A program made the translations under genes and the position numbers. A stretch of DNA of 64,000 bases from an uncultured Candidatus Binatia bacterium (GTDB lineage Bacteria; Desulfobacterota; Binatia; Bin18). The notes beneath the pieces are model-generated. The model ran no database searches and had not been told where the DNA came from. It was given only the letters and a program-made list of their open reading frames with translations. The stretch is from assembly GCA_965200965.1 (NCBI GenBank), contig OZ241744.1, positions 224,001 to 288,000 of the forward strand, read 5' to 3'. Of the stretch, positions 35,797 to 64,000 are shown piece after piece. How positions within the stretch are numbered: position 1 is the stretch's first letter; each line of letters starts with the position of its first letter.

Positions 35797-35800
35797 GCGC

Positions 35801-45374: not shown

Positions 45375-45386
45375 CCAGCAGAGTCC

Positions 45387-47273
45387 TCAGAAGAATTGTC
45401 CCACACTGAAATGCGGCTGCCAGAGATTATCATCAGAGGGCGGGTCAAAGGGGAAGCCCACCTGCAGCTGGATCGGGCCGAAGCGGGTAGCATAGCCAAG
45501 GCCAAAACCGGCGGCAAACCGCAGGGCATCAATCGAGATATCGTAAGCCCGGGCCTCAAGCTGACCGAAATCGACGAACACGGCCCCGCTTAGCGCCTTC
45601 CACACCGGGCGGCGGAGTTCTACCGATCCTTCGATCAGGCTCAGGCCGCCGAGCGGGTCGTCCGAGCGGCTCAGCGGTCCGAGGCGGCGACGACCGTACC
45701 CCCGCACACTTTTCTCGCCGCCGGCGTACAGGCGTTCGGAGAGGGGCAGGTTTGTCACCGGGCCAAAGGCATCGGCCAAGCCGACTTTGAGGCGGCTGGC
45801 CACCACCGTCTGCCAGCCGAGCGCATAGTATGTTTTGGCCTCGGTCGTCAGCGTATAAAAGTGGTAATCCGGGCTGCTGGTTTGCGCAAAGTTGAGCGAC
45901 ACCACGCTGCCCCGTTTGGGGTCCAGCCGGTCTGTGGTGGTGTCCCAGGCCAGTTCCAGGACGGGGCCAGAGAGCAGCCCCTCACGTTCAATGCCGCCGA
46001 GAGCGCGGATCGTTGACGGCGAGATATTATTCAGTCTGGCGAACTCCAGCCGGTAGCCGACAGCCCCGGACAGGTTGGAGGAGAAGCGGTGTTCGAGCCG
46101 GGGCCGAAAGCGGGTGTAGTTCAGCAGAAAGGTCTCTTCGTCTTCCTGGCCCTGGCTGAGGTCGAGAACCAGCCGAGCGCGTTTGGTCAGGAAATGGGGT
46201 TGGACGAGTTGCACCCCCAAGGAGCGGGTGATGGACGAGAATTTCAGCAGCACCGACAGACGCCGCCCGCCGCCAAGCCAGTTCCGGTGCTGCCATTCAA
46301 TATAGCCGCGGAACTCATCCTCAGTGCCATAGCCCAGACCGAGCTTGAAATCTCGTGGTGGGCCTTCCTTGACCCGTACCCGCAGCGGGACCACCCGGGG
46401 CCGGCCGTTGGATTGGGTCGGGGCAATCTGGACGGAATCAAACAGGCCCAAGTCCAGCAGGTTTTGGCGGGTCGCGTTCAGAGGCTGGAGAGAGAACTGC
46501 TGGCCGGGCAGGTAGGTGAAGTCCCGTCTGAGGAGTTGGGGGGCGATGCCTTCCAGACCCTCAATATGGGTCTGGCCGAAAACGGTCGGTGGGCCGGGAC
46601 GAATCCGGTAGCGCAGGTGGGCGGTTCGCTGGTCAAGGAGCAGTTCAGCCGCGCGCCTGACCTCGGTCCAGCCATAGCCGCGGTCAAGAAAAAATGTCTT
46701 GAGTTGGGCTGCGGCCGCCCGGTAGCCGTCCTCGGTAAAAATGTCACCCTGTTTGACTGGCAGGTCGGGGAGCCGGGTATCAGAGGGCGGCGCGTGTTGG
46801 TCTGGTTGGGAGGGCTGTCTATCAAGTTGAATATCCACCCGTCCGACCCGGATCGGCTCCCCCTCGTCAATACGAATACGGAGACTGAGCAGGCCGCCTG
46901 CACCGCGGTCCCAGAGACGTTTTTCCTGGCGGGTCAACTCGTAGTGCAGGGTCGCATGATAATAGCCGTGGGAGCGATACAGACGGGTCAGGCGCTTCAG
47001 ATCAAGGCTAAAGGCGACCGGATCAAACAGGGGGTGGGCGCGCCACGGCGTATACCACGGGCGGGCCTCGGTGGTCAGAGCCGCCCGCAACTCGGCTTTG
47101 GCGAGGCGCGTATGACCGGAAAAGCTCAGCCCGCCCAGCCGCCATTGCCGGGCCGGATCAAGGTCGTCAAGGGTGAGGGCAAAGGCCGGCGGAAACAGCC
47201 CGCCCACCAGCGTCGCCACCAGACAGACCAGCAGCAGCCGTCCCGGTGCTGTACACCCTCTTCGCGGATACAT
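45387..47273 (-). CDS. tamA: Omp85 outer-membrane protein, TamA/BamA family
   Basis: Signal peptide, POTRA repeats, HRNWLGGG, YAGGEKSVRGY, terminal GQFF; adjacent to tamB. Confidence 0.85.
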   Translation of the reverse strand: MYPRRGCTAPGRLLLVCLVATLVGGLFPPAFALTLDDLDPARQWRLGGLSFSGHTRLAKAELRAALTTEARPWYTPWRAHPLFDPVAFSLDLKRLTRLYRSHGYYHATLHYELTRQEKRLWDRGAGGLLSLRIRIDEGEPIRVGRVDIQLDRQPSQPDQHAPPSDTRLPDLPVKQGDIFTEDGYRAAAAQLKTFFLDRGYGWTEVRRAAELLLDQRTAHLRYRIRPGPPTVFGQTHIEGLEGIAPQLLRRDFTYLPGQQFSLQPLNATRQNLLDLGLFDSVQIAPTQSNGRPRVVPLRVRVKEGPPRDFKLGLGYGTEDEFRGYIEWQHRNWLGGGRRLSVLLKFSSITRSLGVQLVQPHFLTKRARLVLDLSQGQEDEETFLLNYTRFRPRLEHRFSSNLSGAVGYRLEFARLNNISPSTIRALGGIEREGLLSGPVLELAWDTTTDRLDPKRGSVVSLNFAQTSSPDYHFYTLTTEAKTYYALGWQTVVASRLKVGLADAFGPVTNLPLSERLYAGGEKSVRGYGRRRLGPLSRSDDPLGGLSLIEGSVELRRPVWKALSGAVFVDFGQLEARAYDISIDALRFAAGFGLGYATRFGPIQLQVGFPFDPPSDDNLWQPHFSVGQFF

Positions 47274-47516
47274 TTGCACCTCTTCATATACCCCGGACGA
47301 GCGTCTGTAAAGCGTGGTCAGGCCCCTCAGGCTTGCGGTCGGCGGGCGGGCTTTTGATAGACAGGACGGGACAAGACAGCCAACCACCATGATTGAGGAG
47401 ACTCATATCTCCGCGGGAAACGCAGAACCCGCCCACCACCAGGCTCCGGTACAGTTGGCGATGGGAGATGCCGGTTGGCTCCGGTTCCTGTTCCTGCTGA
47501 GCGACACCCCCGTTCG

Positions 47517-47735: not shown

Positions 47736-50240
47736 CTACTCGGGGGAGGCCCATTCCACCTCCCAGCCCCGGCCAGCCGCAGTGACCTGCCCGGTGCGGA
47801 GACGCGCCAGAGGGTAGGCGGGCAGCCGCACCGTCGCCAGACACTTGTCAGCAAACCGCGCCGCCTGCTGCACATGCGGCAGGCGGTGCCGCCACCGGTG
47901 GAAGCCGAAATCCAGGGCCGCAAACCCGAAGGGCCGCCGCGCAGCGGTCAGCACCGCCCGGTCCCGGGGGAAGACATGCAGGAAGAAGCGCCCCTGCGTG
48001 TCCGCCCGCTGACACCCCGCTTTGACATAGGTCAGGGTCCGCCCGTCCAGGTAGAGGGCAAAGTCAGAGCGGGCCACCGGCGGGGCCGCCACCGCTGCCC
48101 GGTATGTCGCCTCAAGCAGGTCGGTCGCGGTTACGCCAGCAGCCGACCACGCCAGGGCGACGTGCCAGCGATCCACTCCCTCGGGGACGAACAGGCGGGC
48201 TTCAAGGGTTTGGATCGGATAGGGGGGCAGTGTCCGCCGGATCAGACACGCCCCGTCAACGCGGACCCCGTAATCGGGAAAGATGAAGTTCAGGACCTCA
48301 GTGCCTGGCACTCGACGCCACGCGGGGCGGTCGGCAGCGGCAGCGTCAGCGTCAGCGGGGTCCACGGGCACGACATGGACCACGAAGCGCCCCCGCACAT
48401 CGGCCGGCCGGCAGGGGGCCTTCACCCAGGTCAGGGTGGTCCCCTCCAGGTACAGGTCGAACGCCGAGCGGAGGAGGGGCGGCCCGGCGGTGGTGGCCCG
48501 GTAGAGTTGCTGGTAGCGCTCGACGGTGGCCGCGTCCACCAGGGCCGGGTCGCTTGCGCTCACCGTGAGGATGGTGTTGTTGTAGACTTGGCGGGTGTAG
48601 ACAACGGGTGCGAAGGGGCGATCAAGGCTGTCTCTCCACCCAGTGAACACATGAGAGGTCACATGAAAGTCTCCCTCCTCCTCCATTCCGTCGGCGAAGA
48701 CAATGCGACGCCGGGCTGCCTTGGGAAGGATGTCCCAGTTCCTTATGTGACGGCCGGTGGGATGGCCATTGGGACGGCCCGACGCCAGAGAGACAGGTGA
48801 AGTGGGATAGCGCTGGAGCAGATATTCCAGCCCCTCCCGGTACACCGTCCCCCAGTAGTCCATGTCATACTGCCCACGCAGGTACTCGGGCGTACTCCGG
48901 TCCACCAGCCGGTTGAAATAGAGGTGCTGGTAGGGATGAAGCCCAACCATTTCGATGACCACGCCAGCCAGACCAGCTACGGCCAGGCCATAGACACCGG
49001 CCCGCAGGGCTGGCCAGCGGCATACGCCAGCCAGCCGCCGCAGACCGGCCACGGCCAGCAGACACAGCGGGGCGTAGAGGAAATACATCTGCCGCCAGTT
49101 GTGGTAGACGTTGGCATTGAGGACGATGACGGCCCCAACGGGCAGGAGCACACAGGCCACGAGCAGCCCCTCAAAGCGGGTGGTGGGGTTGCGGAGCCAC
49201 TCGCCGGGGTGGGTCAGAGTCTGCCGGAGCACACCAGCCGCCCCGATGAGGCTCAGCAGCAGCACGCCCGGCGGGGTGGTGATGGCCAGCCAGGTCGGAA
49301 TGTAGTGCGCCGGAAGGTCCGGCCAGCGGATGACCTCGCCTTGAAAGAGCATAGTAGGACGGTGAGAGTGCTGGGAGAGAACTGCAATCGCGTCAAGCAG
49401 CTCCAGCGGATTGCCCCACAGATAGGGCGAGACCGCATACAGCGTCAAGACACTGGCCAGCCCGAACACCCCCAGCGTCCTCCCCACCTGCCGCCGTTCC
49501 GCCCGATTTCCCGCTCGCACCCAATCCACTACCCGCATCACCATCACCGCCACAAACAATCCCCCGCCCATGATGCGTAAGTTCGTTGCGACCCCCACCC
49601 CTACCCCACACAGCGCATACGCCCCCACCCCCCCCCGCTGCCACGCCCGATGAATCAGGGCCAGACAGCCCAGGAAGGCCACCAGGAAGGGGATGTCCTT
49701 GGTGTTGACAAACGAGTGGGCATACAGCCGGGGATGGAGGACGAAGAGGCCGAGGGCCAGCAGGGCCAGCCAGCGGCTGCCGAACAGCCGGGCGGCCAGC
49801 CAGGCCGCGCCCCCGCCGCCGGCCAGAAAGCAGAGGTGGGTGAGCAGATGGCGGCTCAAGTAGATGGCGCGGCTGTCGGTGAGGCCGAGCAGCCGCTCAA
49901 CCAGGACCAACGGCACTTCGAAGACAATGCCGTAGTAGCGGTTGTGGGGGGGACCGGGGGGGCGCAGGGTCTCGGTGTCGCCCAGCGCATAGGCGATTGC
50001 CGCCTGGCCGATCCCGTGTTGCTCCTTCTCGTCCCACCCCACCCCGTAATCGTCAAGGACGGCCAGGCCCACCACGGCCAGCACCGCCAGGGCCAGCAGG
50101 ACACTGTGGGCGGCCACGAAGGCCACCGCCGCCGTGGACCAGCGGCCCACGGACCGGGGGACAGAGGTCACGATGAGCCTGCCCAGGTGGGCGGCCATGG
50201 AGGTGCCGCCAGCCGTGCCCCGAATGTCAGCCGGCCTCAA
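47736..50240 (-). CDS. GT-C fold (ArnT/PMT-like) membrane glycosyltransferase, copy 1
   Basis: DDYGVGWDE after TM1, multiple TM segments, HPRLYAHSF.NTKD, WRQMYF, duplicated C-terminal domain. Confidence 0.8.
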   Translation of the reverse strand: MRPADIRGTAGGTSMAAHLGRLIVTSVPRSVGRWSTAAVAFVAAHSVLLALAVLAVVGLAVLDDYGVGWDEKEQHGIGQAAIAYALGDTETLRPPGPPHNRYYGIVFEVPLVLVERLLGLTDSRAIYLSRHLLTHLCFLAGGGGAAWLAARLFGSRWLALLALGLFVLHPRLYAHSFVNTKDIPFLVAFLGCLALIHRAWQRGGVGAYALCGVGVGVATNLRIMGGGLFVAVMVMRVVDWVRAGNRAERRQVGRTLGVFGLASVLTLYAVSPYLWGNPLELLDAIAVLSQHSHRPTMLFQGEVIRWPDLPAHYIPTWLAITTPPGVLLLSLIGAAGVLRQTLTHPGEWLRNPTTRFEGLLVACVLLPVGAVIVLNANVYHNWRQMYFLYAPLCLLAVAGLRRLAGVCRWPALRAGVYGLAVAGLAGVVIEMVGLHPYQHLYFNRLVDRSTPEYLRGQYDMDYWGTVYREGLEYLLQRYPTSPVSLASGRPNGHPTGRHIRNWDILPKAARRRIVFADGMEEEGDFHVTSHVFTGWRDSLDRPFAPVVYTRQVYNNTILTVSASDPALVDAATVERYQQLYRATTAGPPLLRSAFDLYLEGTTLTWVKAPCRPADVRGRFVVHVVPVDPADADAAAADRPAWRRVPGTEVLNFIFPDYGVRVDGACLIRRTLPPYPIQTLEARLFVPEGVDRWHVALAWSAAGVTATDLLEATYRAAVAAPPVARSDFALYLDGRTLTYVKAGCQRADTQGRFFLHVFPRDRAVLTAARRPFGFAALDFGFHRWRHRLPHVQQAARFADKCLATVRLPAYPLARLRTGQVTAAGRGWEVEWASPE

Positions 50241-52783
50241 GAGCGTGCTCCCGATGAGGCCGGAACGGGCCAGCCCACCTGATCGGCCACAGGAAATTCA
50301 ACTGCCCAGACCGGCTTCTCGCTGGCGACCTGCCCGGTGCGGAGCCGTGCCAGAGGATAGGCGGGCAGCCGCACCGTCGCCAGACACTTGTCAGCAAACC
50401 GCGCCGCCTGCTGCACATGCGGCAGGCGGTGCCGCCACCGGTGGAAGCTGAAATCCAGGACCGCAAACCCGAAGGGCCGCCGCGCAGCGGCCAGCACGGC
50501 CCGGTCCCGGGGGAAGACATGCAGGAAGAAGCGCCCCTGCGTGTCCGCCCGCTGACACCCCTCTTTGACATAGGTCAGGGTCCGCCCGTCCAGGTAGAGG
50601 GCAAAGTCAGAGCGGGCCACCGGCGGGGCCGCCACCGCTGCCCGGTATGTCGCCTCAAGCAGGTCGGTCGCGCGCACGCCAGCAGGTGCCAAGTCAATGC
50701 TTACTCTCCAAAGATCGGGTCCCCCGGGGACGAACAGGCGGGCTTCAAGGGTTTGGATCGGATAGGGGGGCAGTGTCCGCCGGATCAGACACGCCCCGTC
50801 AACGCGGACCCCGTAATCGGGAAAGATGAAGTTCAGGACCTCAGTGCCTGGCGTTCGCCGCCACGCGGGGCGGTCGGCAGCGGCAGCGTCAGCGGGGTCC
50901 ACGGGCACGACATGGACCACGAAGCGCCCCCGCACATCGGCCGGCCGGCAGGGGGCCTTCACCCAGGTCAGGGTGGTCCCGTCCAGGTACAGGTCGAACG
51001 CCGAGCGGAGGAGGGGCGGCCCGGCGGTGGTGGCCCGGTAGAGTTGCCGGTAGCGCTCGGCGGTGGCCGCATCCACCAGAGCGGGGTCGCTCGCGCTCAC
51101 CGTGAGGATGGTGTTGTTGTAGACTTGGCGGGTGTAGACAATGGGTGCGAAGGGGTGATCAAAGCGGTCTCCCCACCCAGTGAACACATGAGAGGTCACA
51201 TAAAAGTCCCCCTCCTCCTCCATTCCGTCGGCGAAGACAATGCGACGCCGGGCTGCCTTGGGCAGGATACCCCGGTTCATGGTGTACTGGATGCCGGGAC
51301 GGCCGCTGGGACGGCTCGGCACTAGAGAGACGGGTGAGGCGGGATAGCGCTGAAGCAGATATTCCAGCCCCTCCCGGTACGTCTGTGAGCGGTACGCTTC
51401 GTAGTACTGCCCACGCAGGTACTCGGGCGTGTTCCGGTCCACCAGCCAGTTGAAATAGACATACTGATGAGGATGAATCCCAACCATTTCGATGACCACG
51501 CCAGCCAGGCCAGCCATGGCCAGGCCATAGACACCGGCCCGCAGGGCCGGCCAGCGGCACACGCCAGCCAGCCGCCGCAGACCAGCCACAGCCAGCAGAC
51601 ACAGCGGGGCGTAGAGGAAATACATCTGCCGCCAGCCGTTGTGGACATTGGCATTGAGGACGATGACGGCCCCAACGGGCAGGAGCACGCAGGCCACGAG
51701 CAGGCCCTCAAAGCGGGTGGTGGGGTTGCGGAGCAGCTCGCCGGGGTGGGTCAGAGTCCGCCAGAGCACGCCAGCCGCCCCGATGAGGCTCAGCAGCAGC
51801 ACGCCCGGCGGGGTGGTGATGGCCAGCCAGGTCGGAATGTAGTGCGCCGGAATAGCCGGCCAGTGGATGAGTTCGCCTTGAAAGAGCATAGTAGGACGGT
51901 GAGGGTGCTGGGAGAGAACCGTGAATGTTTCGACCACCTCCAGGGGATTGCTCCACAGATGGGGCGAGACCGCATACAGCGTCAAGACACTGGCCAGCCC
52001 GAACACCCCCAGCGTCCTCCCCACCTGCCGCCGTTCCGCCCGATTTCCCGCCCGCACCCAATCCACCACCCGCATCACCATCACCGCCACAAACAATCCC
52101 CCACCCATGATGCGTAAGTTCGTTGCGACCCCCACCCCCACCCCACACAGCGCATACGCCCCCACCCCCCCCCGTTGCCACGCCCGGTGAATCAGGGCCA
52201 GACAGCCCAGGAAGGCCACCAGGAAGGGGATGTCCTTGGTGTTGAAAAACGAGTGGGCATACAGCCGGGGATGGAGGACGAAGAGGCCGAGGGCCAGCAG
52301 GGCCAGCCAGCGGCTGCCGAACAACCGGGCGGCCAGCCAGGCCGCGCCCCCGCCGCCGGCCAGAAAGCAGAGGTGGGTGAGGAGATGGCGGCTCAAGTAG
52401 ATGGCGCGGCTGTCGGTGAGACCCAGCAGCCGCTCAACCAGCACCAGCGGTACTTCGAAGACAACGCCGTAGTAGCGGTCATAGGGAGGGAGACCGGGGG
52501 GCGCGTGCAGGGTCTCGGTGTCGCCTAGCGCATAGGCGATTGCCGCCTGGGTAATTCGGCGTTGGGCTGTCTCGTCCCACCCCACCCCGTAATCGTCAAG
52601 AACGGCCAAGCCCACCACGGCCAGCACCGCCAGGGCCAGCAGGACACTGTGGCGGGCCACGAAGGCCACCGCCGCCGTGGACCAGCGGCCCACGGACCGG
52701 GGGACAGAGGTCACGATGAGCCTGCCCAGGTGGGCGGCCATGGAGGTGCCGCCAGCCGTGCCCCGAATGTCAGCCGGCCTCAA
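50237..52783 (-). CDS. GT-C membrane glycosyltransferase, copy 2
   Basis: Same motifs as copy 1. Confidence 0.8.
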   Translation of the reverse strand: MRPADIRGTAGGTSMAAHLGRLIVTSVPRSVGRWSTAAVAFVARHSVLLALAVLAVVGLAVLDDYGVGWDETAQRRITQAAIAYALGDTETLHAPPGLPPYDRYYGVVFEVPLVLVERLLGLTDSRAIYLSRHLLTHLCFLAGGGGAAWLAARLFGSRWLALLALGLFVLHPRLYAHSFFNTKDIPFLVAFLGCLALIHRAWQRGGVGAYALCGVGVGVATNLRIMGGGLFVAVMVMRVVDWVRAGNRAERRQVGRTLGVFGLASVLTLYAVSPHLWSNPLEVVETFTVLSQHPHRPTMLFQGELIHWPAIPAHYIPTWLAITTPPGVLLLSLIGAAGVLWRTLTHPGELLRNPTTRFEGLLVACVLLPVGAVIVLNANVHNGWRQMYFLYAPLCLLAVAGLRRLAGVCRWPALRAGVYGLAMAGLAGVVIEMVGIHPHQYVYFNWLVDRNTPEYLRGQYYEAYRSQTYREGLEYLLQRYPASPVSLVPSRPSGRPGIQYTMNRGILPKAARRRIVFADGMEEEGDFYVTSHVFTGWGDRFDHPFAPIVYTRQVYNNTILTVSASDPALVDAATAERYRQLYRATTAGPPLLRSAFDLYLDGTTLTWVKAPCRPADVRGRFVVHVVPVDPADAAAADRPAWRRTPGTEVLNFIFPDYGVRVDGACLIRRTLPPYPIQTLEARLFVPGGPDLWRVSIDLAPAGVRATDLLEATYRAAVAAPPVARSDFALYLDGRTLTYVKEGCQRADTQGRFFLHVFPRDRAVLAAARRPFGFAVLDFSFHRWRHRLPHVQQAARFADKCLATVRLPAYPLARLRTGQVASEKPVWAVEFPVADQVGWPVPASSGARS

Positions 52784-55326
52784 GAGCGTGCTCCCGATGA
52801 GGCCGGAACGGGCCAGCCCACCTGATCGGCCACAGGAAATTCAACTGCCCAGACCGGCTTCTCGCTGGCGACCTGCCCGGTGCGGAGCCGTGCCAGAGGA
52901 TAGGCGGGCAGCCGCACCGTCGCCAGACACTTGTCAGCAAACCGCGCCGCCTGCTGCACATGCGGCAGGCGGTGCCGCCACCGGTGGAAGCTGAAATCCA
53001 GGACCGCAAACCCGAAGGGCCGCCGCGCAGCGGCCAGCACGGCCCGGTCCCGGGGGAAGACATGCAGGAAGAAGCGCCCCTGCGTGTCCGCCCGCTGACA
53101 CCCCTCTTTGACATAGGTCAGGGTCCGCCCGTCCAGGTAGAGGGCAAAGTCAGAGCGGGCCACCGGCGGGGCCGCCACCGCTGCCCGGTATGTCGCCTCA
53201 AGCAGGTCGGTCGCGCGCACGCCAGCAGGTGCCAAGTCAATGCTTACTCTCCAAAGATCGGGTCCCCCGGGGACGAACAGGCGGGCTTCAAGGGTTTGGA
53301 TCGGATAGGGGGGCAGTGTCCGCCGGATCAGACACGCCCCGTCAACGCGGACCCCGTAATCGGGAAAGATGAAGTTCAGGACCTCAGTGCCTGGCGTTCG
53401 CCGCCACGCGGGGCGGTTGGCAGCGTCAGCGGGGTTCACGGGCACGACATGGACCACGAAGCGCCCCCGCACATCGGCCGGCCGGCAGGGGGCCTTCACC
53501 CAGCTCAAGGTGGTCCCGTCCAGGTACAGGTCGAACGCCGAGCGGAGGAGGGGCGGCCCGGCGGTGGTGGCCCGGTAGAGTTGCCGGTAGCGCTCGGCGG
53601 TGGCCGCATCCACCAGGGCCGGGTCGATCGCGCTCACCGTGAGGATGGTGTTGTTGTAGACTTGGCGGGTGTAGACAATGGGTGCGAAGGGGTGATCAAA
53701 GCGGTCAAGCCACGCGCTGAACATGTGATTGGTCACATAAAAGTCCCCCTCCTCCTCCATTCCGTCGGCGAAGACGATACGGTTCCGGTCCGCCTTGGGA
53801 AGGATGCCCCGGTTCCTTATATAATGGCCGGCGGGGCGGGCATTGGGACGGCCCGGTGCCAGAGAGACGGGTGAGACGGGTTGGCGCTGGAGCAGATATT
53901 CCAGCCCCTCCCGGTACGTTGTCCCCCAGTAGTCCATGTCATACTGCCCACGCAGGTACTCGGGCGTACTCCGGTCCACCAGCCGGTTGAAATAGAGGTG
54001 CTGGTAGGGATGAAGCCCGACCATTTCGATGACCACGCCAGCCAAGCCAGCCACGGCTAGGCCATAGACACCGGCCCGCAGGGCGGGCCAGCGGCACACG
54101 CCAGCCAGCCGCCGCAGACCGGCCACGGCCAGCAGACACAGCGGGGCGTAGAGGAAATACATCTGCCGCCAGCCATTATAGACATTGGCATTGAGGACGA
54201 TGACGACCCCAACGGGCAGGAGCACGCAGGCCACGAGCAGGCCCTCAAAGCGGGTGGTGGGGTTGCGGAGCCACTCGCCGGGGTGGGTCAGAGTCTGCCA
54301 GAGCACACCAGCCGCCCCGATGAGGCTCAGCAGCAGCACGCCCGGCGGGGTGGTGATGGCCAGCCAAGTCGGAATGTAGTGGGCCGGAATGGCCGGCCAG
54401 TGCACGACCTCGCCTTGAAAGAGCCTAGAACCCATGTGAGGATACTGGGAGAAAACCGTAAACGTTTCGACCACCTCCAAGGGATTGCTCCACAGATGGG
54501 GCGAGACCGCATACAGCGTCAAGACACCGGCCAGCCCGAACACCCCCAGCGTCCTCCCCACCTGCCGCCGTTCCGCCCGACTCCCCGCTCGCACCCAATC
54601 CACCACCCGCATCACCATCACCGCCACAAACAATCCCCCACCCATGATGCGTAAGTTCGTTGCGACCCCCACCCCCACCCCACACAGCGCATACGCCCCC
54701 ACCCCCCCCCGCTGCCACGCCCGGTGAATCAGGGCCAGACAGCCCAGGAAGGCCACCAGGAAGGGGATGTCCTTGGTGTTGACAAACGAGTGGGCATACA
54801 GCCGGGGATGGAGGACGAAGAGGCCGAGGGCCAGCAGGGCCAGCCAGCGGCTGCCGAACAGCCGGGCGGCCAGCCAGGCCGCCCCCCCGCCGCCCGCCAG
54901 AAAGCAGAGGTGGGTGAGGAGATGGCGGCTCAAGTAGATGGCGCGGCTGTCGGTGAGACCCAGCAGCCGCTCAACCAGCACCAGCGGCACTTCGAAGACA
55001 ACGCCGTAGTAGCGGGTGTTGGCATGGACGGGGGCCAGCAGGGTCTCGGTGTCGCCCAGCATGTAGTTGACCGCCGCCTGGGCAATTCGGCGCTGCATTG
55101 TCTCGTCCCACGCCACCCCGTAATCGTCAAGGACGGCAAGGCCCACCACGGCCAGAACCGTCAGGGCCAGCAGGACACTGTGGGCGGCCACGAAGGCCAC
55201 AGCCGCCGTGCGCCAGCGGCCCACGGACCGGGGGACGGAGGTCACGATGATCCTGCCCAGGTGGGCGGCCATGGAGGTGCCGCCAGCCGGCTCGGCAGCC
55301 GTACCCCGAATGTCGGCGGGCCTCAA
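52780..55326 (-). CDS. GT-C membrane glycosyltransferase, copy 3
   Basis: Same motifs; DDYGVAWDE. Confidence 0.8.
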   Translation of the reverse strand: MRPADIRGTAAEPAGGTSMAAHLGRIIVTSVPRSVGRWRTAAVAFVAAHSVLLALTVLAVVGLAVLDDYGVAWDETMQRRIAQAAVNYMLGDTETLLAPVHANTRYYGVVFEVPLVLVERLLGLTDSRAIYLSRHLLTHLCFLAGGGGAAWLAARLFGSRWLALLALGLFVLHPRLYAHSFVNTKDIPFLVAFLGCLALIHRAWQRGGVGAYALCGVGVGVATNLRIMGGGLFVAVMVMRVVDWVRAGSRAERRQVGRTLGVFGLAGVLTLYAVSPHLWSNPLEVVETFTVFSQYPHMGSRLFQGEVVHWPAIPAHYIPTWLAITTPPGVLLLSLIGAAGVLWQTLTHPGEWLRNPTTRFEGLLVACVLLPVGVVIVLNANVYNGWRQMYFLYAPLCLLAVAGLRRLAGVCRWPALRAGVYGLAVAGLAGVVIEMVGLHPYQHLYFNRLVDRSTPEYLRGQYDMDYWGTTYREGLEYLLQRQPVSPVSLAPGRPNARPAGHYIRNRGILPKADRNRIVFADGMEEEGDFYVTNHMFSAWLDRFDHPFAPIVYTRQVYNNTILTVSAIDPALVDAATAERYRQLYRATTAGPPLLRSAFDLYLDGTTLSWVKAPCRPADVRGRFVVHVVPVNPADAANRPAWRRTPGTEVLNFIFPDYGVRVDGACLIRRTLPPYPIQTLEARLFVPGGPDLWRVSIDLAPAGVRATDLLEATYRAAVAAPPVARSDFALYLDGRTLTYVKEGCQRADTQGRFFLHVFPRDRAVLAAARRPFGFAVLDFSFHRWRHRLPHVQQAARFADKCLATVRLPAYPLARLRTGQVASEKPVWAVEFPVADQVGWPVPASSGARS

Positions 55327-57800
55327 GAGCGTGCTCCCGATGAGGCTGGAACGGGCCAGCTCACCTGATCGGCCACAGGAAATTCAACTGCCCAGATCGG
55401 CTTCTCGCTGGCGACCTGCCCGGTGCGGAGCCGTGCCAGAGGATAGGCGGGCAGCCGCACCGTCGCCAGACACTTGTCAGCAAACCGCGCCGCCTGCTGC
55501 ACATGCGGCATGTAGTGCCGCCACCAGTCAAAACCAAAATCCAGGACCGCAAACCCGGCTGGCCGCCGTGCAGCGGTCAGCACGGCCCGGTCCCGGGGGA
55601 AGACATGCAGGAAGAAGCGCCCCTGCGTGTCCGCCCGCTGACACCCCGCTTTGACATAGGTCAGGGTCCGCCCCTCCAGGTACAGGGCAAAGTCAGAGCG
55701 GGCCACCGGCGGGGTCGCCACCGCTGCCCGGTATGTCGCCTCAAGCAGGTCGGTCGCACGCACGCCAGCAGCCGACCACGCCAGGGCGACATGCCAGCGA
55801 TCCACGCCCCCGGGGGTGATCAGGCGGGCTTCAAGGGTTTGGATCGCATAAGGGGGAAGCGGGCACCGGATCAGACACGCCCCGTCAAGGCGGACCCCGT
55901 AATCGGAAAAGCCGAAGTTCAGGATTTCAATGCCTGGCCCCGACCGCCACGCAGGGCGGTCGGCAGCGGCAGCGGGGTCCACGGGCACGACATAGACCAC
56001 GAAGCGCCCCCGCATGTCGGCCGGACGGCAGGGCACCTTCACCCAACTCAAGGTGGCCCCCTCCAGGTACAGGTCAAACGCCGAGCGGAGGAGGGGTGGC
56101 TTGGCGGTGGTGGCCCGGTAGAGTTGCCGGTAGCGCTCGGCGGTGGCCGCATCCACCAGGGCCGGATCGCTCGCGCTCACCGTGAGGATGGTGTTGTTGT
56201 AGACTTGACGGGTGTAGACAAGGGGTGCGAAGGGGAGATCACGGCTCTTGTCCCACGGGCTGAACATGTGATCGGTCACATAAAAGTCCCCCTCCTCCTC
56301 CATTCCGTCGGCGAAGACAATGCGACGCCGGTCCGCCTTGGGAAGGCTACCCCAGTTCCGTATTTGATAGGCGGTGGGACGGCCGCTGGAATGGCCCGGC
56401 ACCAGGGAGACGGGTGAGGCGGGATAGCGCTGGAGCAGATATTCCAGCCCCTCCCGGTACGCCGTCCCCCAGCGTCCCTCGTCATACTGCCCACGCAGGT
56501 ACTCGGGCGTGTGCCGGTCCACCAGCCGGTTGAAATAGAGGTGCTGGTAGGGATGAAGCCCCACCATTTCGATGACCACGCCAGCCAGGCCAGCTACGGC
56601 CAAGCCATAGACACCGACCCGCAGGGCCGGCCAGCGGCACACGCCAGCCAGCCGTCGCAGACCGGCCACGGCCAGCAGACACAACGGAGCGTAGAGGAAA
56701 TACATGTGCCGCCAGTTGTTATAGACATTGGCATTGAGGATGATGACGGCCCCAACGGGCAGGAGCACGCAGGCCACGAGCAGGCCCTCAAAGCGGGTGG
56801 TGGGGTTACGGAGCCACTCGCCGGGGTGGGTCAGAGTCTGCCGGAGCACACCAGCCGCCCCGATGAGGCTCAGCAGCAGCACGCCCGGCGGGGTGGTGAT
56901 GGCCAGCCAAGTCGGAATGTAGTGGGCCGGAATGGCCGGCCAGTGAATTGCTTCGCCTTGAAAGAGCATAGTAGGACGGTGAGAGTGCTGGGAGAGAACT
57001 GCAATCGCGTCAAGCAGCTCCAGTGGATTGCCCCACAGATAGGGCGAGACCGTATACAGCGTCAAGACACTGGCCAGCCCGAACACCCCTAGCGTCCTCC
57101 CCACCTGCCGCCGTTCCGCCCGATTTCCCGCTCGCACCCAATCCACCACCCGCCCCCCCACCACCGCCACAAACAATCCCCCGCCCATGATGCGTAAGTT
57201 CGTTGCGACCCCCACCCCCACCCCACACAGCGCATACGCCCCCACCCCCCCCCGCTGCCACGCCCGGTGAATCAGGGCCAGACAGCCCAGGAAGGCCACC
57301 AGGAAGGGAATGTCCTTGGTGTTGAAAAACGAGTGGGCATACAGCCGGGGATGGAGCACGAAGAGGCCGAGGGCCAGCAGGGCCAGCCAGCGGCTGCCGA
57401 ACAGCCGGGAGGCCAGCCAGGCCGCGCCCCCGCCGCCGGCCAGAAAGCAGAGGTGGGTGAGCAGATGGCGGCTCAAGTAGATGGCGCGGCTGTCGGTGAG
57501 ACCCAGCAGCCGCTCAACCAGCACCAGCGGCACTTCGAAGACAACGCCGTAGTAGCGGTCGGAGGGGGGACCGGGGGGGCGCAGGGTCTCGGTGTCGCCC
57601 AGCGCATAGGCGATTGCCGTCTGGGCAATTTGGTGCTGGGCTGTCTCGTCCCACGCCACCCCGTAATCGTCAAGGACGGCCATGCCCACCACGACCAGGA
57701 CGGCCAGGGCCAGCGGGATACTGTGGGCGGCCACGAAGGCCACCGCCGCCGTGCACCAGCGGCCCACGGACCGGGGGACAGAGGGACGCCCGCTTGTCAT
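55323..57800 (-). CDS. GT-C membrane glycosyltransferase, copy 4
   Basis: Same motifs; MTSGRP-type N-terminus. Confidence 0.8.
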   Translation of the reverse strand: MTSGRPSVPRSVGRWCTAAVAFVAAHSIPLALAVLVVVGMAVLDDYGVAWDETAQHQIAQTAIAYALGDTETLRPPGPPSDRYYGVVFEVPLVLVERLLGLTDSRAIYLSRHLLTHLCFLAGGGGAAWLASRLFGSRWLALLALGLFVLHPRLYAHSFFNTKDIPFLVAFLGCLALIHRAWQRGGVGAYALCGVGVGVATNLRIMGGGLFVAVVGGRVVDWVRAGNRAERRQVGRTLGVFGLASVLTLYTVSPYLWGNPLELLDAIAVLSQHSHRPTMLFQGEAIHWPAIPAHYIPTWLAITTPPGVLLLSLIGAAGVLRQTLTHPGEWLRNPTTRFEGLLVACVLLPVGAVIILNANVYNNWRHMYFLYAPLCLLAVAGLRRLAGVCRWPALRVGVYGLAVAGLAGVVIEMVGLHPYQHLYFNRLVDRHTPEYLRGQYDEGRWGTAYREGLEYLLQRYPASPVSLVPGHSSGRPTAYQIRNWGSLPKADRRRIVFADGMEEEGDFYVTDHMFSPWDKSRDLPFAPLVYTRQVYNNTILTVSASDPALVDAATAERYRQLYRATTAKPPLLRSAFDLYLEGATLSWVKVPCRPADMRGRFVVYVVPVDPAAAADRPAWRSGPGIEILNFGFSDYGVRLDGACLIRCPLPPYAIQTLEARLITPGGVDRWHVALAWSAAGVRATDLLEATYRAAVATPPVARSDFALYLEGRTLTYVKAGCQRADTQGRFFLHVFPRDRAVLTAARRPAGFAVLDFGFDWWRHYMPHVQQAARFADKCLATVRLPAYPLARLRTGQVASEKPIWAVEFPVADQVSWPVPASSGARS

Positions 57801-60148
57801 TGAGAGACTCCCGGCAGGGGCCGCCCAGCCCCGGCTCGCTCCGGTAATGCCACGTCCATCTCCCAGCCCCGGCCAGCCTCAGTGACCTGCCCCGTGCGGA
57901 GCCGCACCGGAGGATAGGCCGGCAGCCGCAGCGTCGCCAGACACCTGTCAGCAAACCGCGCCGCCTGCTGCACAGGCGACATGTGGTGCCGCCACCGTTG
58001 GAAGCCGAAATCCAGGACAGCAAACCCGAAGGGACGCTGAGTAGCAGCCAGTACTGGCGAGGCCGCCACCACCGCCCGGTACGTCGCCTGAAGCAGGTCG
58101 GTCGCGCGCACGCCAGCAGGTACCAAGTCAATGGTTACTCTCCAAAGATCGGGTCCCCCGGGGACATGCAGGCGGGCTTCAAGGGCGTGGATCGGATAGG
58201 GGGGCAGTGTCCGCCGGATCAGACACGCCCCGTCAACGCGGACCCCGTAATCGGAAAAGTCGAAACGCAGGATCTCACGGCCTGACTCCTGCAGCCACGC
58301 GGGGCGGTCGGCAGCGTCAGCGGGGTCCACGGGCACGACCTCGACCGCGAAGCGCCCCCGCACATCGGCCGGCCGGCAGGGGGCCTTCACCCAGGTCAGG
58401 GTGGTCCCCTCTAGGTACAGGTCGAACGCCGAGCGAAGGAGGGGCGGCCCGGCGGTGGTGGCCCGGTAGAGTTGCCGGTAGCGCTCGACGGTGGCCGTGT
58501 CCACCACGGCCGGGTCGATCGCGCTCACCGTGAGGATGGTGTTGTTGTAGACTTGGCGGGTGTAGACAACGGGTGCGAAGGGGCGATCAAAGCGGTCTCC
58601 CCACCCAGTGAACGCACGAGAGGTCACATAAAAGTCCCCCTCCTCCTCCATTCCGTCGGCGTAGACAATGCGACGCCGGGCTGCCTTGGCAAGAATGTCC
58701 CGGTTCCTTACTTGATAGCCGGTGGGACGGCCGCTGGGACGGTCCGGCACTAGAGAGATGGGTGAGGCGGGATAGTGCTGGAGCAGATATTCCAGCCCCT
58801 CCCGGTACGCCGTCTCCCAATAGTCCATCTGGTACTGCCCACGCAGGTACTCGGGCGTACTCCGGTCCACCAGCCGGTTGAAATAGAGGTACTGATGGGG
58901 ATGAATCCCAACCATTTCGATGACCACGCCAGCCAGGCCAGCCACGGCCAGGCCATAGACACCGGCCCGCAGGGCCGGCCAGCGGCACACGCCAGCCAGC
59001 CGCCGCAGACCGGCCACGGCCAGCAGACACAGCGGGGCGTAGAGGAAATACATCTGCCGCCAGCCGCCGTAGACGCTGGCATTGAGGACGATGACGGCCC
59101 CAACGGGTAGGAGCACACAGGCCACAAGCAGGCCCTCAAAACGGGTGGTGGGGTTGCGGAGCAACTCGCCAGGGTGGGTCAGCCCCCGCCGGAGCACGCC
59201 AGCCGCCCCGATGAGGCTCAGCAGCAGCACGCCCGGCGGGGTGGTGATGGCCAGCCAGGTCGGAATGTAGTGCGCCGGAATGGCCGGCCAGCGGATAACC
59301 TCGCCTTGAAAGAGCATAGTAGGACGGATGGGGTGCTGGGAGAGGACTGCAATCGCGTCAAGCAGCTCCAGCGGATTGCCCCACAGATAGGGCGAGACCG
59401 CATACAGCGTCAAGACACTGGCCAGCCCGAACACCCCCAGCGTCCTCCCCACCTGCCGCCGTTCCGCCCGACTCCCCGCCCGCACCCAATCCACTACCCG
59501 CATCACCATCACCGCCACAAACAATCCCCCGCCCATGATGCGTAAGTTCGTTGCGACCCCCACCCCCACCCCACACAGCGCATACGCCCCCACCCCCCCC
59601 CGCTGCCACGCCCGGTGAATCAGGGCCAGACAGCCCAGGAAGGCCACCAGGAAGGGGATGTCCTTGGTGTTGAAAAACGAGTGGGCATACAGCCGGGGAT
59701 GGAGCACGAAGAGGCCGAGGGCCAGCAGGGCCAGCCAGCGGCTGCCGAACAGCCGGGAGGCCAGCCAGGCCGCACCCCCGCCGCCAGCCAGAAAGCACAG
59801 GTGGGTGAGCAGATGGCGGCTCAAGTGGATAGCACGGCTGTCGGTGAGACCCAGCAGCCGCTCAACCAGGACCAGCGGCACTTCGAAGACAACGCCGTAG
59901 TAGCGGTTGTGGGGGGGACTGGGGGGGCGCAGGGTCTCGGTCTCGCCCAGCGCATAGGCGATTGCCGCTTGGCCAATCCCACGTTGATACTCCTCGTCCG
60001 GCCCCACCCCGTAATCATCAAGGACGGCTAGGCCCACCACGGCCAGCACCGCCAGGGCCAGCAGGACACTGTGGCGGGCCACGAAGGCCACCGCCGCCGT
60101 GCCCCAGCCGGCCACGGACCGGGGAACGGAGGGACGCCCGCTGGTCAT
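57797..60148 (-). CDS. GT-C membrane glycosyltransferase, copy 5 (~41-aa in-frame deletion in the second C-terminal domain)
   Basis: DDYGVGPDE; AASPVLAATQRPF replaces the longer segment seen in the other copies. Confidence 0.8.
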   Translation of the reverse strand: MTSGRPSVPRSVAGWGTAAVAFVARHSVLLALAVLAVVGLAVLDDYGVGPDEEYQRGIGQAAIAYALGETETLRPPSPPHNRYYGVVFEVPLVLVERLLGLTDSRAIHLSRHLLTHLCFLAGGGGAAWLASRLFGSRWLALLALGLFVLHPRLYAHSFFNTKDIPFLVAFLGCLALIHRAWQRGGVGAYALCGVGVGVATNLRIMGGGLFVAVMVMRVVDWVRAGSRAERRQVGRTLGVFGLASVLTLYAVSPYLWGNPLELLDAIAVLSQHPIRPTMLFQGEVIRWPAIPAHYIPTWLAITTPPGVLLLSLIGAAGVLRRGLTHPGELLRNPTTRFEGLLVACVLLPVGAVIVLNASVYGGWRQMYFLYAPLCLLAVAGLRRLAGVCRWPALRAGVYGLAVAGLAGVVIEMVGIHPHQYLYFNRLVDRSTPEYLRGQYQMDYWETAYREGLEYLLQHYPASPISLVPDRPSGRPTGYQVRNRDILAKAARRRIVYADGMEEEGDFYVTSRAFTGWGDRFDRPFAPVVYTRQVYNNTILTVSAIDPAVVDTATVERYRQLYRATTAGPPLLRSAFDLYLEGTTLTWVKAPCRPADVRGRFAVEVVPVDPADAADRPAWLQESGREILRFDFSDYGVRVDGACLIRRTLPPYPIHALEARLHVPGGPDLWRVTIDLVPAGVRATDLLQATYRAVVAASPVLAATQRPFGFAVLDFGFQRWRHHMSPVQQAARFADRCLATLRLPAYPPVRLRTGQVTEAGRGWEMDVALPERAGAGRPLPGVSQ

Positions 60149-62281
60149 TGAGGGACTCCCGGCAGGGGCCGCCCCGCCCCGCCTCGCTCCGGCAACGCCA
60201 CGTCCACCGCCCAGCCCCCGCCCGCCTCAGCGACCTGCCCGGTGCGGAGACGCGCCAGAGGATAGGAGGGCAGTTGTACCGTCGCCAGACACTTGTCAGC
60301 AAACCGCGCCGCCTGCTGTACATGCGAAATGTCATGCCGCCACCAGTCAAAACCGAAATCCAGGACCGCAAACCCCAAGGACCGCCGCGCAGCGGCCAGC
60401 ACCCCCCGGTCCCGGGGGAAGACCTCCAGGAAGAAGCGCCCCCGCGTGTCCGCCGGCTGACACCCCGCTTTGACATACGTCAGGGTCCGCCCCTCCAGGT
60501 ACAGGGCAAAGGCAGAGCGGGCCACCGGCGGGGCCGCCACCACCGCCCGGTACCGCGCCTCAAGCAGGTCGGTCGCACGCACGCCAGCAGCCGACCACGC
60601 CAGGGCAACGTGCCAGCGATCCACGCCATCGGGGGCGACCAGGCGGGCTTCAAGCGTTTGGATCGCATAGGGAGGCAGCGGGGGCCGGAGCAGACACGTC
60701 CCGTCAAAGTGGACCCCGTAATCGAAAAAGTCGAAATGCAGGATTTCAATGCCTGGCCCCGGCCGCCACCCGGGGCGGTCGGCAGCGGCAGCGGGGTCCA
60801 CGGGCAGGACATAGACCACGAAGCGCCCCCGCACATCGTCCACGCGGCAGGGGGCCTTCGCCCAGCCCAAGGTGGCCCCGTCCAGGTACAGGTCGAACTC
60901 TGAGCGGAGGAGAGGCGGCCCGGCGGTGGTGGCCCGGTAGAGTTGCCGGTAGCGCTCGGCGGTGGCCGCCAGCCGGTTGAAATAGAGGTGCTGGTAGGGA
61001 TGAAGCCCAACCATTTCGATGACCACGCCAGCCAGGCCAGCTACGGCCAGGCCATAGACACCGGCCCGCAGGGCCGGCCAGCGGCACACGCCGACCAGCC
61101 GCCGCAGACCGGCCACGGCCAGCAGACACAACGGGGCGTAGAGGAAATACATGTGCCGCCAGCCGTCGTAGACATTGGCATTGAGGACGATGACGGCCCC
61201 AACGGGCAGGAGCACACAGGCCACGAGCAGCCCCTCAAAGCGGATGGTGGGGTTGCGGAGCAACTCGCCGGGGTGCGTCAGAGTCTGCCAGAGCACACCA
61301 GCCGCCCCGATGAGGCTCAGCAGCAGCACGCCCGGCGGGGTGGTAATGGCCAGCCAGGTCGGAATGTAATGCGCCGGAAGGTCCGGCCAGCGGATGACCT
61401 CGCCTTGAAAGAGCATAGGAGGACGGCGAGGGTGCTGGGAGAGGACTGCAATCGCGTCAAGCAACTCCAAGGGATTGCCCCACAGATAGGGCGAGACCGC
61501 ATACAGCGTCAAGACACTGGCCAGCCCGAACACCCCCAGCGTCCTCCCCACCTGCCGCCGCTCCGCCCGACTCCCCGCCCGCACCCAATCCACCACCCGC
61601 ATCACCACCACCGCCACAAACAATCCCCCGCCCATGATGCGTAAGTTCGTTGCGACCCCCACCCCCACCCCACACAGCGCATACGCCCCCCCCCCCCCGC
61701 TGCCACGCCCGGTGAATCAGGGCCAGACAGCCCAGGAAGGCCACCAGGAAGGGAATGTCCTTGGCGTTGAAAAACGAGTGGGCATACAGCCGGGGATGGA
61801 GGACGAAGAGGCCGAGGGCCAGCAGGGCCAGCCAGCGGCTGCCGAACAACCGGGAGGCCAGCCAAGCCGCGCCCCCACCGCCGGCCAGAAAGCAGAGGTG
61901 GGTGAGGAGATGGCGGCTCAAGTAGATGGCGCGGCTGTCGGTGAGACCCAGCAGCCGCTCAACCAGGACCAGCGGCACTTCGAAGACAACGCCGTAGTAG
62001 CGGTTGTGGAGGGGACCGGTGTCGCGCAGGGTCTCGGTGTCGCCCAGCGCATAGGCGATTGCCGCTTGGCCTCTCCCACGTTGCGACCCCACGTTCCACG
62101 CCACCCCGTTCCTATATTCCCGATCCCCGTCCCACAACACCCCGTAATCGTCAAGAACGGCCAAGCCCACCACGGCCAGCACCGCCAGGGCCAGCAGGAC
62201 ACTGTGGCGGGCCACGAAGGCCACCGCCGCCGTGCCCCAGCCGGCCACGGACCGGGGAACGGAGGGACGCCCGCTGGTCAT
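60145..62281 (-). pseudogene. GT-C glycosyltransferase copy 6, frameshifted at a G13 tract and internally deleted
   Basis: C13 at 61686-61698 versus C5-A-C9 in intact copies; two ORF halves; YFNRL joined directly to AATAERY. Confidence 0.8.
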
Positions 62282-64000
62282 TGAGAGACTCCCGGCAGAG
62301 GCCGCCCAGCCCCGCCTCGCTCCGGCAACGCCACATCCACCGCCCAGCCCCGGCCCGCCTCAGCGACCTGCCCGGTGCGCAGCCGTGCCAGAGGATAGGC
62401 GGGCAGCCGTACCGTCGCCAGACACTTGTCAGCAAACCACGCCGCCTGCTGTACATGCGAAATGTCATGCCGCCACCAGTCAAAACCGAAATCCAGGACC
62501 GTAAACCCCAAGGACCGCCGCGCAGCGGCCAGCACCGCCCGGTCCCGGGGGAAGACATGCAGGAAGAAGCGCCCCTGCGTGTCCGCCCGCTGACACCCCG
62601 CTTTGACATACGTCAGGGTCCGCCCCTCCAGGTACAGGGCAAAGGCAGAGCGGGCCACCGGCGGGGCCGCCACCACCGCCCGGTACCGCGCCTCAAGCAG
62701 GTCGGTCGCACGCACGCCAGCAGCCGACCACGCCAGGGCAACGTGCCAGCGATCCACGCCCCCGGGGGCGATCTGGCGGGCTTCAAGCGTTTGGATCGCA
62801 TAGGGGGGCAGCGGATGCCGGATCAGACACGCCCCGTCAAGGTGGACCCCGTAATCGGAGAAGTCGAAATGCCGGATCTCACGGGCTGGCCCCGGCCGCC
62901 ACCCGAGGCGGTCGGCAGCGGCAGCGGGGTCCACGGGCATGACATAGACCACGAAGCGCCCCCGCACATCGGCCGGCCGGCAGGGGGCCTTCACCCAGGT
63001 CAGGGTGGTCCCGTCCAGGTGCAGGTCGAACGCCGAGCGGAGGAGGGGCGGCCTGTCTGTTGTGGTCCGGTAGAGCTGTTGGTAGCGCTCGGCGGTGGCC
63101 GCATCCACCAGGGCCGGGTCGATCGCGCTCACCGTGAGGATGGTGTTGTTGTAGACTTGGCGGGTGTAGACAATGGGCATGAAGGGGCGATCACGGCTGT
63201 CTCTCCACCCTCCGATCATACGACTGGTCAGAGAAAAGTCCCCCTCCTCCTCTATTCCGTCGGCGTAGACAATGCGACGCCGGGCTGCCTTGGGAAGGAT
63301 GTCCCGGTTCCTTATGTGATTGCCGGTGGGATGGCCAGCGGGACGGCTCGACGCCAGAGAGACAGGTGAAGTGGGATAGCGCTGGAGCAGATATTCCAGC
63401 CCCTCCCGGTACGTTGTCCCCCAGTAGTCCATGTCATACTGCCCACGCAGATACTCGGGCGTGTGCCGGTCCACCAGCCGGTTGAAATAGAGGTGCTGAT
63501 GGGGATGAAGCCCGACCATTTCGATGACCACGCCAGCCAGGCCAGCCACGGCCAAGCCATAGACACCGGCCCGCAGGGCGGGCCAGCGGCATACGCCAGC
63601 CAGCCGCCGCAGACCAGCCACGGCCAGCAGACACAGCGGGGCGTAGAGGAAATACATCTGCCGCCAGCCATTGTTGACATTGGCATTGAGGACGATGACG
63701 GCCCCAACGGGCAGGAGCACGCAGGCCACGAGCAGGCCCTCAAAGCGGGTGGTGGGGTTGCGGAGCCACTCGCCGGGGTGGGTCAGAGTCTGCCAGAGCA
63801 CGCCAGCCGCCCCGATGAGGCTCAGCAGCAACACGCCCGGCGGGGTGGTGATGGCCAGCCAGGTCGGAATGTAGTGCGCCGGAATGGCCGGCCAGCGGAT
63901 GACCTCGCCTTGAAAGAGCATAGGAGGACGGGTAGGGTGCTGGGAGAGGACTGCAATCGCGTCAAGCAGTTCCAGCGGATTGCCCCACAGATAGGGCGAG
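62278..64000 (-). CDS. GT-C membrane glycosyltransferase, copy 7 (5' end outside the window)
   Basis: Frame open to the window edge; same motifs as the other copies. Confidence 0.8.
   Translation of the reverse strand, partial: SPYLWGNPLELLDAIAVLSQHPTRPPMLFQGEVIRWPAIPAHYIPTWLAITTPPGVLLLSLIGAAGVLWQTLTHPGEWLRNPTTRFEGLLVACVLLPVGAVIVLNANVNNGWRQMYFLYAPLCLLAVAGLRRLAGVCRWPALRAGVYGLAVAGLAGVVIEMVGLHPHQHLYFNRLVDRHTPEYLRGQYDMDYWGTTYREGLEYLLQRYPTSPVSLASSRPAGHPTGNHIRNRDILPKAARRRIVYADGIEEEGDFSLTSRMIGGWRDSRDRPFMPIVYTRQVYNNTILTVSAIDPALVDAATAERYQQLYRTTTDRPPLLRSAFDLHLDGTTLTWVKAPCRPADVRGRFVVYVMPVDPAAAADRLGWRPGPAREIRHFDFSDYGVHLDGACLIRHPLPPYAIQTLEARQIAPGGVDRWHVALAWSAAGVRATDLLEARYRAVVAAPPVARSAFALYLEGRTLTYVKAGCQRADTQGRFFLHVFPRDRAVLAAARRSLGFTVLDFGFDWWRHDISHVQQAAWFADKCLATVRLPAYPLARLRTGQVAEAGRGWAVDVALPERGGAGRPLPGVSQ

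Follow-up and report, generated by a model that had tools for sequence, protein, structure and literature searches.

The array of near-identical genes in the last quarter of this stretch raises the question of why membrane proteins that agree over most of their length should differ at a few short sites, and whether selection has placed the differences there. The window, meaning the whole 64-kb stretch that was analysed, is C1:224,001-288,000 of the genome of an uncultured Candidatus Binatia bacterium (G000), which is assembled as one 3.62-Mb contig (C1), and its positions 47,736-64,000 contain the distal half of a tandem array of genes predicted to encode GT-C glycosyltransferases. An earlier note on this DNA had proposed that the variable patches converge on the extracytoplasmic substrate pocket, like the complementarity-determining region (CDR) loops of antibodies, under diversifying selection. 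The patches were confirmed and lie on the outer side of the membrane by predicted topology, the copies carrying them are gene-conversion mosaics, and diversifying selection is well supported at two patches in a sister species.

The family has 26 copies in G000, in two tandem arrays of 13 genes each. Array A (C1:271,736-305,645) is located between pheS/pheT (upstream) and tamA/tamB (downstream), and array B (C1:1,131,749-1,165,380) inside a surface-glycan locus. The window contains seven minus-strand copies of array A, of which five are whole, one is frameshifted and one is cut by the window end (Table 1). Neighbouring array genes overlap from stop to start, which points to translational coupling. 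Copies were located by tblastn and open reading frame (ORF) calling, and residue numbers follow copy A10. GT-C analyses of G000 were run on the 22 copies, out of 26, whose GT-C part is complete, leaving out A08, B10 and B12 (frameshifts) and B11 (without C-terminal repeats). The sister species of the same genus (G007), also labelled Ca. Binatia, contains about 50 copies, located at the same two loci as in G000, of which 42 passed the filter and 41 were used in the likelihood tests. A second assembly of the source species, a second strain with a longest contig of 3,603,827 nt, was compared via its proteins only. Among sequencing runs that name a habitat, sponge metagenomes were the best matches; no RNA dataset was among the runs listed. 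No paper on the family or the array was found in the literature searched, at the level of listings and with subscription journals and supplements outside the coverage.

All 22 motifs quoted in the earlier note were legible by eye in the minus-strand ORFs, and the clustering of differences at short sites that it described was borne out by the lag-1 autocorrelation of heterozygosity over the 22 copies (0.578, compared with at most 0.144 in 2000 shuffles). Across these copies 325 of 528 aligned residues are invariant, and seven patches (P1 to P7; 111 of 553 residues) carry 61 % of the pairwise amino acid differences. The patches quoted are real, but P2 in external loop (EL) 1 and P3 in EL4 had been overlooked. 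The transmembrane (TM) helices are nearly unchanged, as had been claimed, with a mean heterozygosity of 0.026 compared with 0.057 in cytoplasmic loops, 0.155 in external loops and 0.298 in the periplasmic domain; a heterozygosity of 0.6 or more is reached at 38 of 271 external sites and at none of the 242 TM or cytoplasmic sites. The extracytoplasmic position of the patches was also upheld, all seven being outside by the predicted 11-TM topology, directly beside residues equated by loop position with GT-C catalytic or donor-binding ones (D51, H272, R364). The C-terminal repeats are also variable (mean heterozygosity 0.18, compared with 0.41 for the patches).

The same pattern is found beyond G000. 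Site variability is correlated between G000 and G007 (rho 0.53, with 52 shared high sites against 17 expected) and between G000 and the arrays of five other genomes (rho 0.37-0.43); these five hold 5-24 copies each, with heterozygosities of 0.42-0.51 inside the patches and 0.17-0.26 outside them. Family matches were found in 4 of 40 relatives, and named carriers include Spirochaetia, Gammaproteobacteria, Caldilineaceae, Latescibacteria and Gemmatimonadota; one 1.8-Mb gammaproteobacterial genome (G045) has at least 24 copies (L052-L072). The same positions are variable in lineage-specific expansions of three phyla. Of eight genome sets, six are monophyletic and two, both from Spirochaetia, are not, so the expansions are separate.

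PF13231 was matched just above its gathering score by A10 and A13 (bit scores in Table 1), no NCBIfam family was matched at E ≤ 1 by any of four proteins, the curated ArnT model included, and a profile search of PDB sequences gave no matches. The predicted model of A10 (mean predicted local distance difference test score 79.6) had ArnT, a GT-C enzyme, as its top Foldseek match (E 2e-5), and its structural matches place it in the GT-C fold, with Z scores of 21-25 to ALG12, AglB, STT3, Pmt and ArnT (ALG12: Z 24.7, root-mean-square deviation 4.8, 428 residues aligned; ArnT 5f15: Z 21.7, 5.8 and 410). In the model, 11 TM helices with arginine-rich inner loops are followed by a periplasmic alpha/beta domain and then by 0-4 two-cysteine beta-sandwich repeats. 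The repeat matched no Pfam family in 54 of 55 members (one stray match) and nothing in the Atlas; its best structural matches were generic Ig-like folds (Z 7.9), and no carbohydrate-binding family was prominent among them.

The conserved GT-C residue set is present, with an acidic residue in EL1, an Asp in EL2, a basic residue in EL3 and an Arg before TM10. D45, D51, K162, D163, R203, W363 and Y439 are fixed or nearly so in 116 copies from seven genomes, the four residues of the set (D51, D163, R203 and R364) being found in 115, 116, 116 and 112 copies. In ArnT, EL1, EL2 and EL4 form the substrate cavities (excerpts of PMC7801869). The residues D51, R82, D163, R203, H272, R364 and Y367 probably correspond in turn to ArnT D55, K85, D158, K203, H267, the EL5 arginine and Y345, as matched by loop position without superposition and with the ArnT residues taken second-hand from the same excerpts. 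The Glu after the catalytic Asp, part of the strict Asp-Glu motif of protein O-mannosyltransferases (GT39), is variably kept (17 of 22 copies in G000, 37 of 41 in G007 and 1 of 13 in a further carrier, G014), and a Glu-to-Ala mutant of Streptomyces Pmt still complements (excerpts of PMC8698208).

Tree-based ratios of nonsynonymous to synonymous substitution (dN/dS, omega) were avoided because recombination saturates beyond about 30 nt, and were replaced by a site-independent codon likelihood of the form used in genomegaMap, calibrated by simulation. A circular ratio of nonsynonymous to synonymous polymorphism (pN/pS), with sites picked and tested within one species (1.4), was set aside. Sites chosen in G000 and scored in G007 had a pN/pS of 1.25 and an omega of 2.2-4.0 (twice the log-likelihood difference, 2dl, of 14-23 against omega = 1), and the remaining sites are under purifying selection (omega 0.27-0.33). 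Under four codon-frequency models the 2dl of the site-mixture test was 8-21 for G000 and 57-100 for G007; null simulations showed this test to be generous, and it was therefore rerun on 435 indel-free sites. The rerun gave a 2dl of 61.5 in G007, which none of 115 nulls reached (null maximum 19.4), and of 10.3 in G000, which was matched or exceeded by 3 of 116 nulls. Residues 54, 274 and 277 have dN/dS above 1 in both species, and residues 50, 53, 54, 274 and 277, neighbours of fixed residues, take up to 12 residues per genome. The claim of diversifying selection therefore held in part, since dN/dS exceeds 1 at residues 50-57 and 274-277 but not at every patch listed. It found no support at the EL5 patch before the Trp-Arg motif, where residues 361-362 are not above a posterior of 0.7; residue 442 has a posterior of only 0.72, in G007, and in two indel-rich patches the result depends on the alignment. 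Diversifying selection at P1 and P3 in G007 is well supported, in G000 it is plausible, and at patches other than P1 and P3 it is unproven.

The variation is reshuffled by recombination. DNA identity across arrays A and B (91.4 %) is close to that within them (91.5 % and 91.8 %), and between G000 and G007 copies it is 70 %, compared with 92 % and 86 % inside each species. Four-gamete incompatibility rises from 0.37 for sites less than 30 nt apart to 0.53-0.56 for more distant ones (0 of 200 permutations), the nearest-neighbour copy shifts segment by segment along the gene, and a periplasmic-domain segment is identical in A03 and B09. The copies are gene-conversion mosaics. In the second strain, 16 of 22 compared copies are within 12 residues of a G000 copy, three are chimeric and two are without a close partner, and 83 of the 102 differences in the 16 close pairs are residues present in another paralogue. 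Patches hold 13 of these 102 differences, a count from which the closeness filter removes patch swaps; in all 20 rows under 45 differences they hold 68 of 199 (34 %), which is still less than the 61 % among paralogues. This strain comparison suggests that the scaffold is often converted and that patch sets are fairly stable per copy and swapped occasionally. Preservation of the patches by selection and by the identity requirement of conversion are indistinguishable here. The likeness to CDR loops did not extend to hypermutation: variable patch columns have no adenine bias (by majority base, 45 of 61 A, 66 of 99 C, 70 of 100 G and 38 of 58 T columns), patches change less than framework between the two strains, and there is no reverse transcriptase of the diversity-generating retroelement (DGR) type, the sole PF00078 match in G000 being a reverse transcriptase split by a stop at C1:2,405 kb (L008:1048-2421), at least about 1.2 Mb from either array and without DGR context.

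Pure G runs are present in four copies, with 13 G in A08 (Table 1), 15 at C1:1,164,626, 14 at C1:1,137,514 and 12 at C1:1,133,725; only the run of 15 is in frame. This in-frame run recurs in the second strain, where the A08 orthologue is also in frame. Pure-G forms were absent from contigs of four runs, in three of which only the interrupted form bridged the site, although contigs drop rare variants. Phase variation at the G run is possible, as is long-read homopolymer error.

The neighbours of array B include genes for a WcaJ-type priming transferase, a GT4, an O-antigen ligase domain, an SGNH protein and a carbamoyltransferase. Four paralogous membrane-anchored SGNH-like genes with conserved scaffolds and variable stretches lie beside it (C1:1,117,261-1,126,591; L003:2261-6416, 10149-11591), and similar genes adjoin the G007 array. 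At the head of array B, G000 and G007 have only fragments of a GtrB-type gene (L006:2170-2742; L027:17795-18079), its end being fused in G000 to the common tail of the arrays. An intact phosphoribosyltransferase-DprE1-DprE2 locus is located 0.33-0.5 Mb from the arrays (C1:789-797 kb; L007:6112-13834), together with two other GT-C genes bearing the same C-terminal repeat; the phosphoribosyltransferase (polyprenyl-phosphoribose synthase) scored above the NCBIfam cut-off, and DprE1 and DprE2 below actinobacterial cut-offs. DprE1 is also found in G007 and G014, and in 13 of 41 genomes overall; the same-genus genome G004 has only fragmented family copies and no DprE1 match (L012, L017). In the five carriers that lack both DprE1 and the synthase, a family member or a gene with the repeat has an intact GtrB-type gene as its neighbour, and in L085 and L086 this gene is intact and adjacent to a GT-C gene. 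The family seems, from gene content, to use either donor type, pentofuranose or GtrB-type. The likeliest donor in G000 is a pentofuranose (polyprenyl-phosphate-arabinofuranose or -ribofuranose), because that pathway is intact and only a remnant is left of the GtrB-type gene that heads array B; a GT2 at C1:625,365 is an alternative.

The reading we favour, and consider probable though far from assured, is that the patches are the specificity-setting loops of a recombining GT-C repertoire that modifies a surface glycan, with the scaffold kept uniform by conversion and new loop residues favoured by selection. The inner-membrane copies would move a sugar from a polyprenyl-phosphate carrier to a periplasmic surface glycan, gene conversion would both homogenise the scaffold and reshuffle the loops, and selection would likely favour new loop residues. 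The loops may converge on the substrate cavity, and the copies may differ in acceptor or linkage. The acceptor would be the lipopolysaccharide O-antigen or another envelope glycan, since array B sits in such a locus, and the driver could be phages or sponge glycan recognition. Several results weigh against this reading. The reverse cross-validation failed, the G007-variable sites having in G000 a pN/pS of 1.01 and an omega of 0.90-1.08, not above 1. The codon site test ignores multi-base changes and is anticonservative, with nulls producing as many as 10 false sites for G000 and 9 for G007. Synonymous polymorphism (pS) is also raised in the patches (0.18-0.27 compared with 0.10-0.16), a pattern that diverged stretches would produce simply by escaping conversion. 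The donor varies across the family, since among 17 other carriers 8 have DprE1 and 12 have the phosphoribosyltransferase, and the GtrA-family flippase (PF04138) had no match in G000, other flippase families not having been searched.

An explanation without diversifying selection is unlikely. Outer loops would simply be tolerant, and conversion, which needs near-identity, would homogenise the scaffold and skip diverged stretches, making the patches a self-reinforcing by-product. An omega of about 1 at G007-defined sites in G000, pS and theta raised in the patches, the 13 of 102 patch differences between close orthologue pairs compared with 61 % among paralogues, and the marginal G000 test (3 of 116) are all in its favour. 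However, the G007 signal is far beyond the nulls, cytoplasmic loops, which are expected to be tolerant too, have no site at or above 0.6 in either species, the most variable sites flank invariant catalytic residues, and the same three residues are prominent in both species. It is rather improbable that the copies are protein O-glycosyltransferases (PMT- or TfpW-like), each paired with different secreted or pilus proteins and reading peptide acceptors with their loops. The PF13231 match and the Pmt and oligosaccharyltransferase structures among the best fold matches would fit this, as would TfpW, which likewise has 11 TM helices, a periplasmic C-terminus and D-arabinofuranose use (excerpts of bioRxiv 2020.04.19.049825), but the Glu after the catalytic Asp varies, the context is one of polysaccharide synthesis and GtrB-type genes, and no acceptor gene adjoins the arrays. 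Having all variation outward-facing and dN/dS above 1 at few sites would also suit a protein that is itself the target, for example an inner-membrane receptor for phage DNA entry, with a constant enzyme specificity; this is very unlikely, as 26-50 simultaneous versions would not conceal a receptor, the variable sites are close to catalytic residues and not on the distal surface, and the distal repeats are less variable than the patches. DGR-targeted hypermutation and assembly artefact were rejected and have a negligible likelihood: Asn codons beside His, Asp, Gly and Tyr codons at residue 361 look DGR-like and G000 is flagged as 5.74 % contaminated, but there is neither adenine-specific variation nor an intact DGR reverse transcriptase, the second assembly has the 16 close copies, other species carry arrays, and pieces are present in four runs from three studies.

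A wider form of the favoured repertoire reading is possible but doubtful. Sponge symbionts of several phyla may separately have built a combinatorial GT-C repertoire of dozens of co-expressed copies, with active-site loops diversified by selection and shuffled by gene conversion and some copies switched off at the G run, which would act as a strain-specific surface-glycan code against phages or for host recognition.

Compared with known systems, the family may resemble the periplasmic glycan modification of Gtr and GT136 systems in its working, and it resembles the lpl cluster of Staphylococcus aureus in its evolution. As in GtrABC of Salmonella and Shigella and the GT136 pentofuranose systems (excerpts of PMC11127046), a GT-C enzyme is here predicted to draw its sugar from a polyprenyl-phosphate carrier in the periplasm, the family is accompanied by GtrB-type or phosphoribosyltransferase/DprE genes, and diversity comes through recombination (excerpts of PMC3688519). 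Salmonella has 1-4 gtr operons of divergent families (excerpts of PMC3688519), whereas the arrays of the present genomes consist purely of GT-C genes, 26-50 in number, with identities of about 88 % and 79 % inside a genome. Membership of GtrABC was rejected, with no PF04138 match in G000 and the GtrB-type gene found only as fragments in G000 and G007; the pentofuranose (GT136/DPA) feature is present, G000 encoding a polyprenyl-phosphoribose synthase with DprE1/E2 away from the arrays. The 11-TM GT-C core, EL1 Asp, EL2 Asp, EL3 basic residue, EL5 Arg-x-x-Tyr and periplasmic alpha/beta domain are shared with ArnT (GT83) and the PMT_2 clan (Pmt, ALG9/12, STT3, TMTC). In contrast to these, the family is only 9-17 % identical to them, has no NCBIfam family or PDB sequence match, and is multicopy with variable loops and 0-4 unnamed C-terminal beta-sandwich repeats; ArnT membership was rejected, as no curated ArnT model was matched. 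TfpW of Pseudomonas aeruginosa and the mycobacterial Emb/Aft arabinofuranosyltransferases, also GT-C enzymes, receive their donor from the DprE1/DprE2 pathway, and this pathway is encoded in G000, G007 and G014 as well, but these enzymes come as single genes or small clusters with fixed roles, and TfpW ends in tetratricopeptide repeats. Antigenic-variation cassettes of the pilE/pilS or vlsE type have one expression site and silent partial cassettes; such a system was rejected, since the GT-C part is complete in 22 of 26 copies and stop codons overlap the start of the following gene. In the S. aureus lpl cluster, as here, conserved stretches are crossover sites, variable regions are reshuffled and copy content is strain-dependent (excerpts of PMC2568036), but lpl genes encode lipoproteins with two variable ends, whereas the present enzyme has seven internal patches and exchange takes place between two arrays 0.83 Mb apart. 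Array junctions are of two types (50237-50240, 52780-52783 and 55323-55326 as against 57797-57800), with one tail invariably followed by a gene whose leader is longer; the exchange unit may therefore span adjacent genes, as in lpl.

Table 1 Features of the distal half of array A and its flank, in window positions (res, residues in A10 numbering)
Feature	Position	Strand	Remarks
tamA and tamB, downstream flank of array A	41556-47390	-	Same flanking genes in G007
GT-C copy A13, last gene of array A	47736-50240	-	834 aa, 2 C-terminal repeats; PF13231 27.9 bits, cut-off 26.1
GT-C copy A12	50237-52783	-	848 aa
GT-C copy A11	52780-55326	-	848 aa
GT-C copy A10 (numbering reference)	55323-57800	-	825 aa; 11 predicted TM helices, periplasmic alpha/beta domain, 2 beta-sandwich repeats; PF13231 30.9 bits
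Two C-terminal two-cysteine Ig/FN3-like beta-sandwich repeats of A10	55365-56132	-	0-4 per copy; no Pfam family
Patch P7, res 499-524, indel-rich periplasmic-domain loop	56229-56306	-	From alignment and model
Patch P6, res 466-486, indel-rich loop after first strand of periplasmic domain	56343-56405	-	From alignment and model
Patch P5, res 439-448, start of periplasmic domain	56457-56486	-	From heterozygosity and codon analysis
Patch P4, res 357-365, EL5, before W363-R364 and Y367	56706-56732	-	Variable; no dN/dS>1 signal
Patch P3, res 265-287, EL4, after H272	56940-57008	-	dN/dS>1 at 274 and 277 in both species
Patch P2, res 73-82, EL1 loop before R82	57555-57584	-	With indels
Patch P1, res 49-60, EL1	57621-57656	-	Around invariant D51; dN/dS>1 at 54 in both species, at 50, 53 and 57 in G007
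GT-C copy A09	57797-60148	-	783 aa; second repeat partly deleted
GT-C copy A08	60145-62281	-	Frameshift at G run; insertion after catalytic Asp; without periplasmic domain; second-strain orthologue P0028 in frame
Pure 13-G run in A08	61686-61698	-	Frameshift site; run interrupted in 22 of 26 copies
GT-C copy A07, 3' part	62278-64000	-	A07 and six further copies run past the window to genome position 305,645

Elsewhere in the window, positions 24372-39061 contain a defence-like cluster of partly low GC content, with GmrSD, an AAA ATPase with DUF3696, Hsp70 and DnaJ-domain genes, a STAND-like NTPase and a weak HEPN match.

The acceptor and linkage specificity of GT-C enzymes is hard to study because the known members share under 20 % identity. 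In these arrays the differences among dozens of copies are almost confined to a few loop residues beside catalytic ones, residues 54, 274 and 277 foremost, and swaps between natural copies would probe specificity directly. If the wider repertoire reading is true, nature has in effect carried out a mutational scan of GT-C specificity in the arrays. With their function predicted, they are also a concrete candidate for the source of surface variation in dense populations of sponge symbionts.

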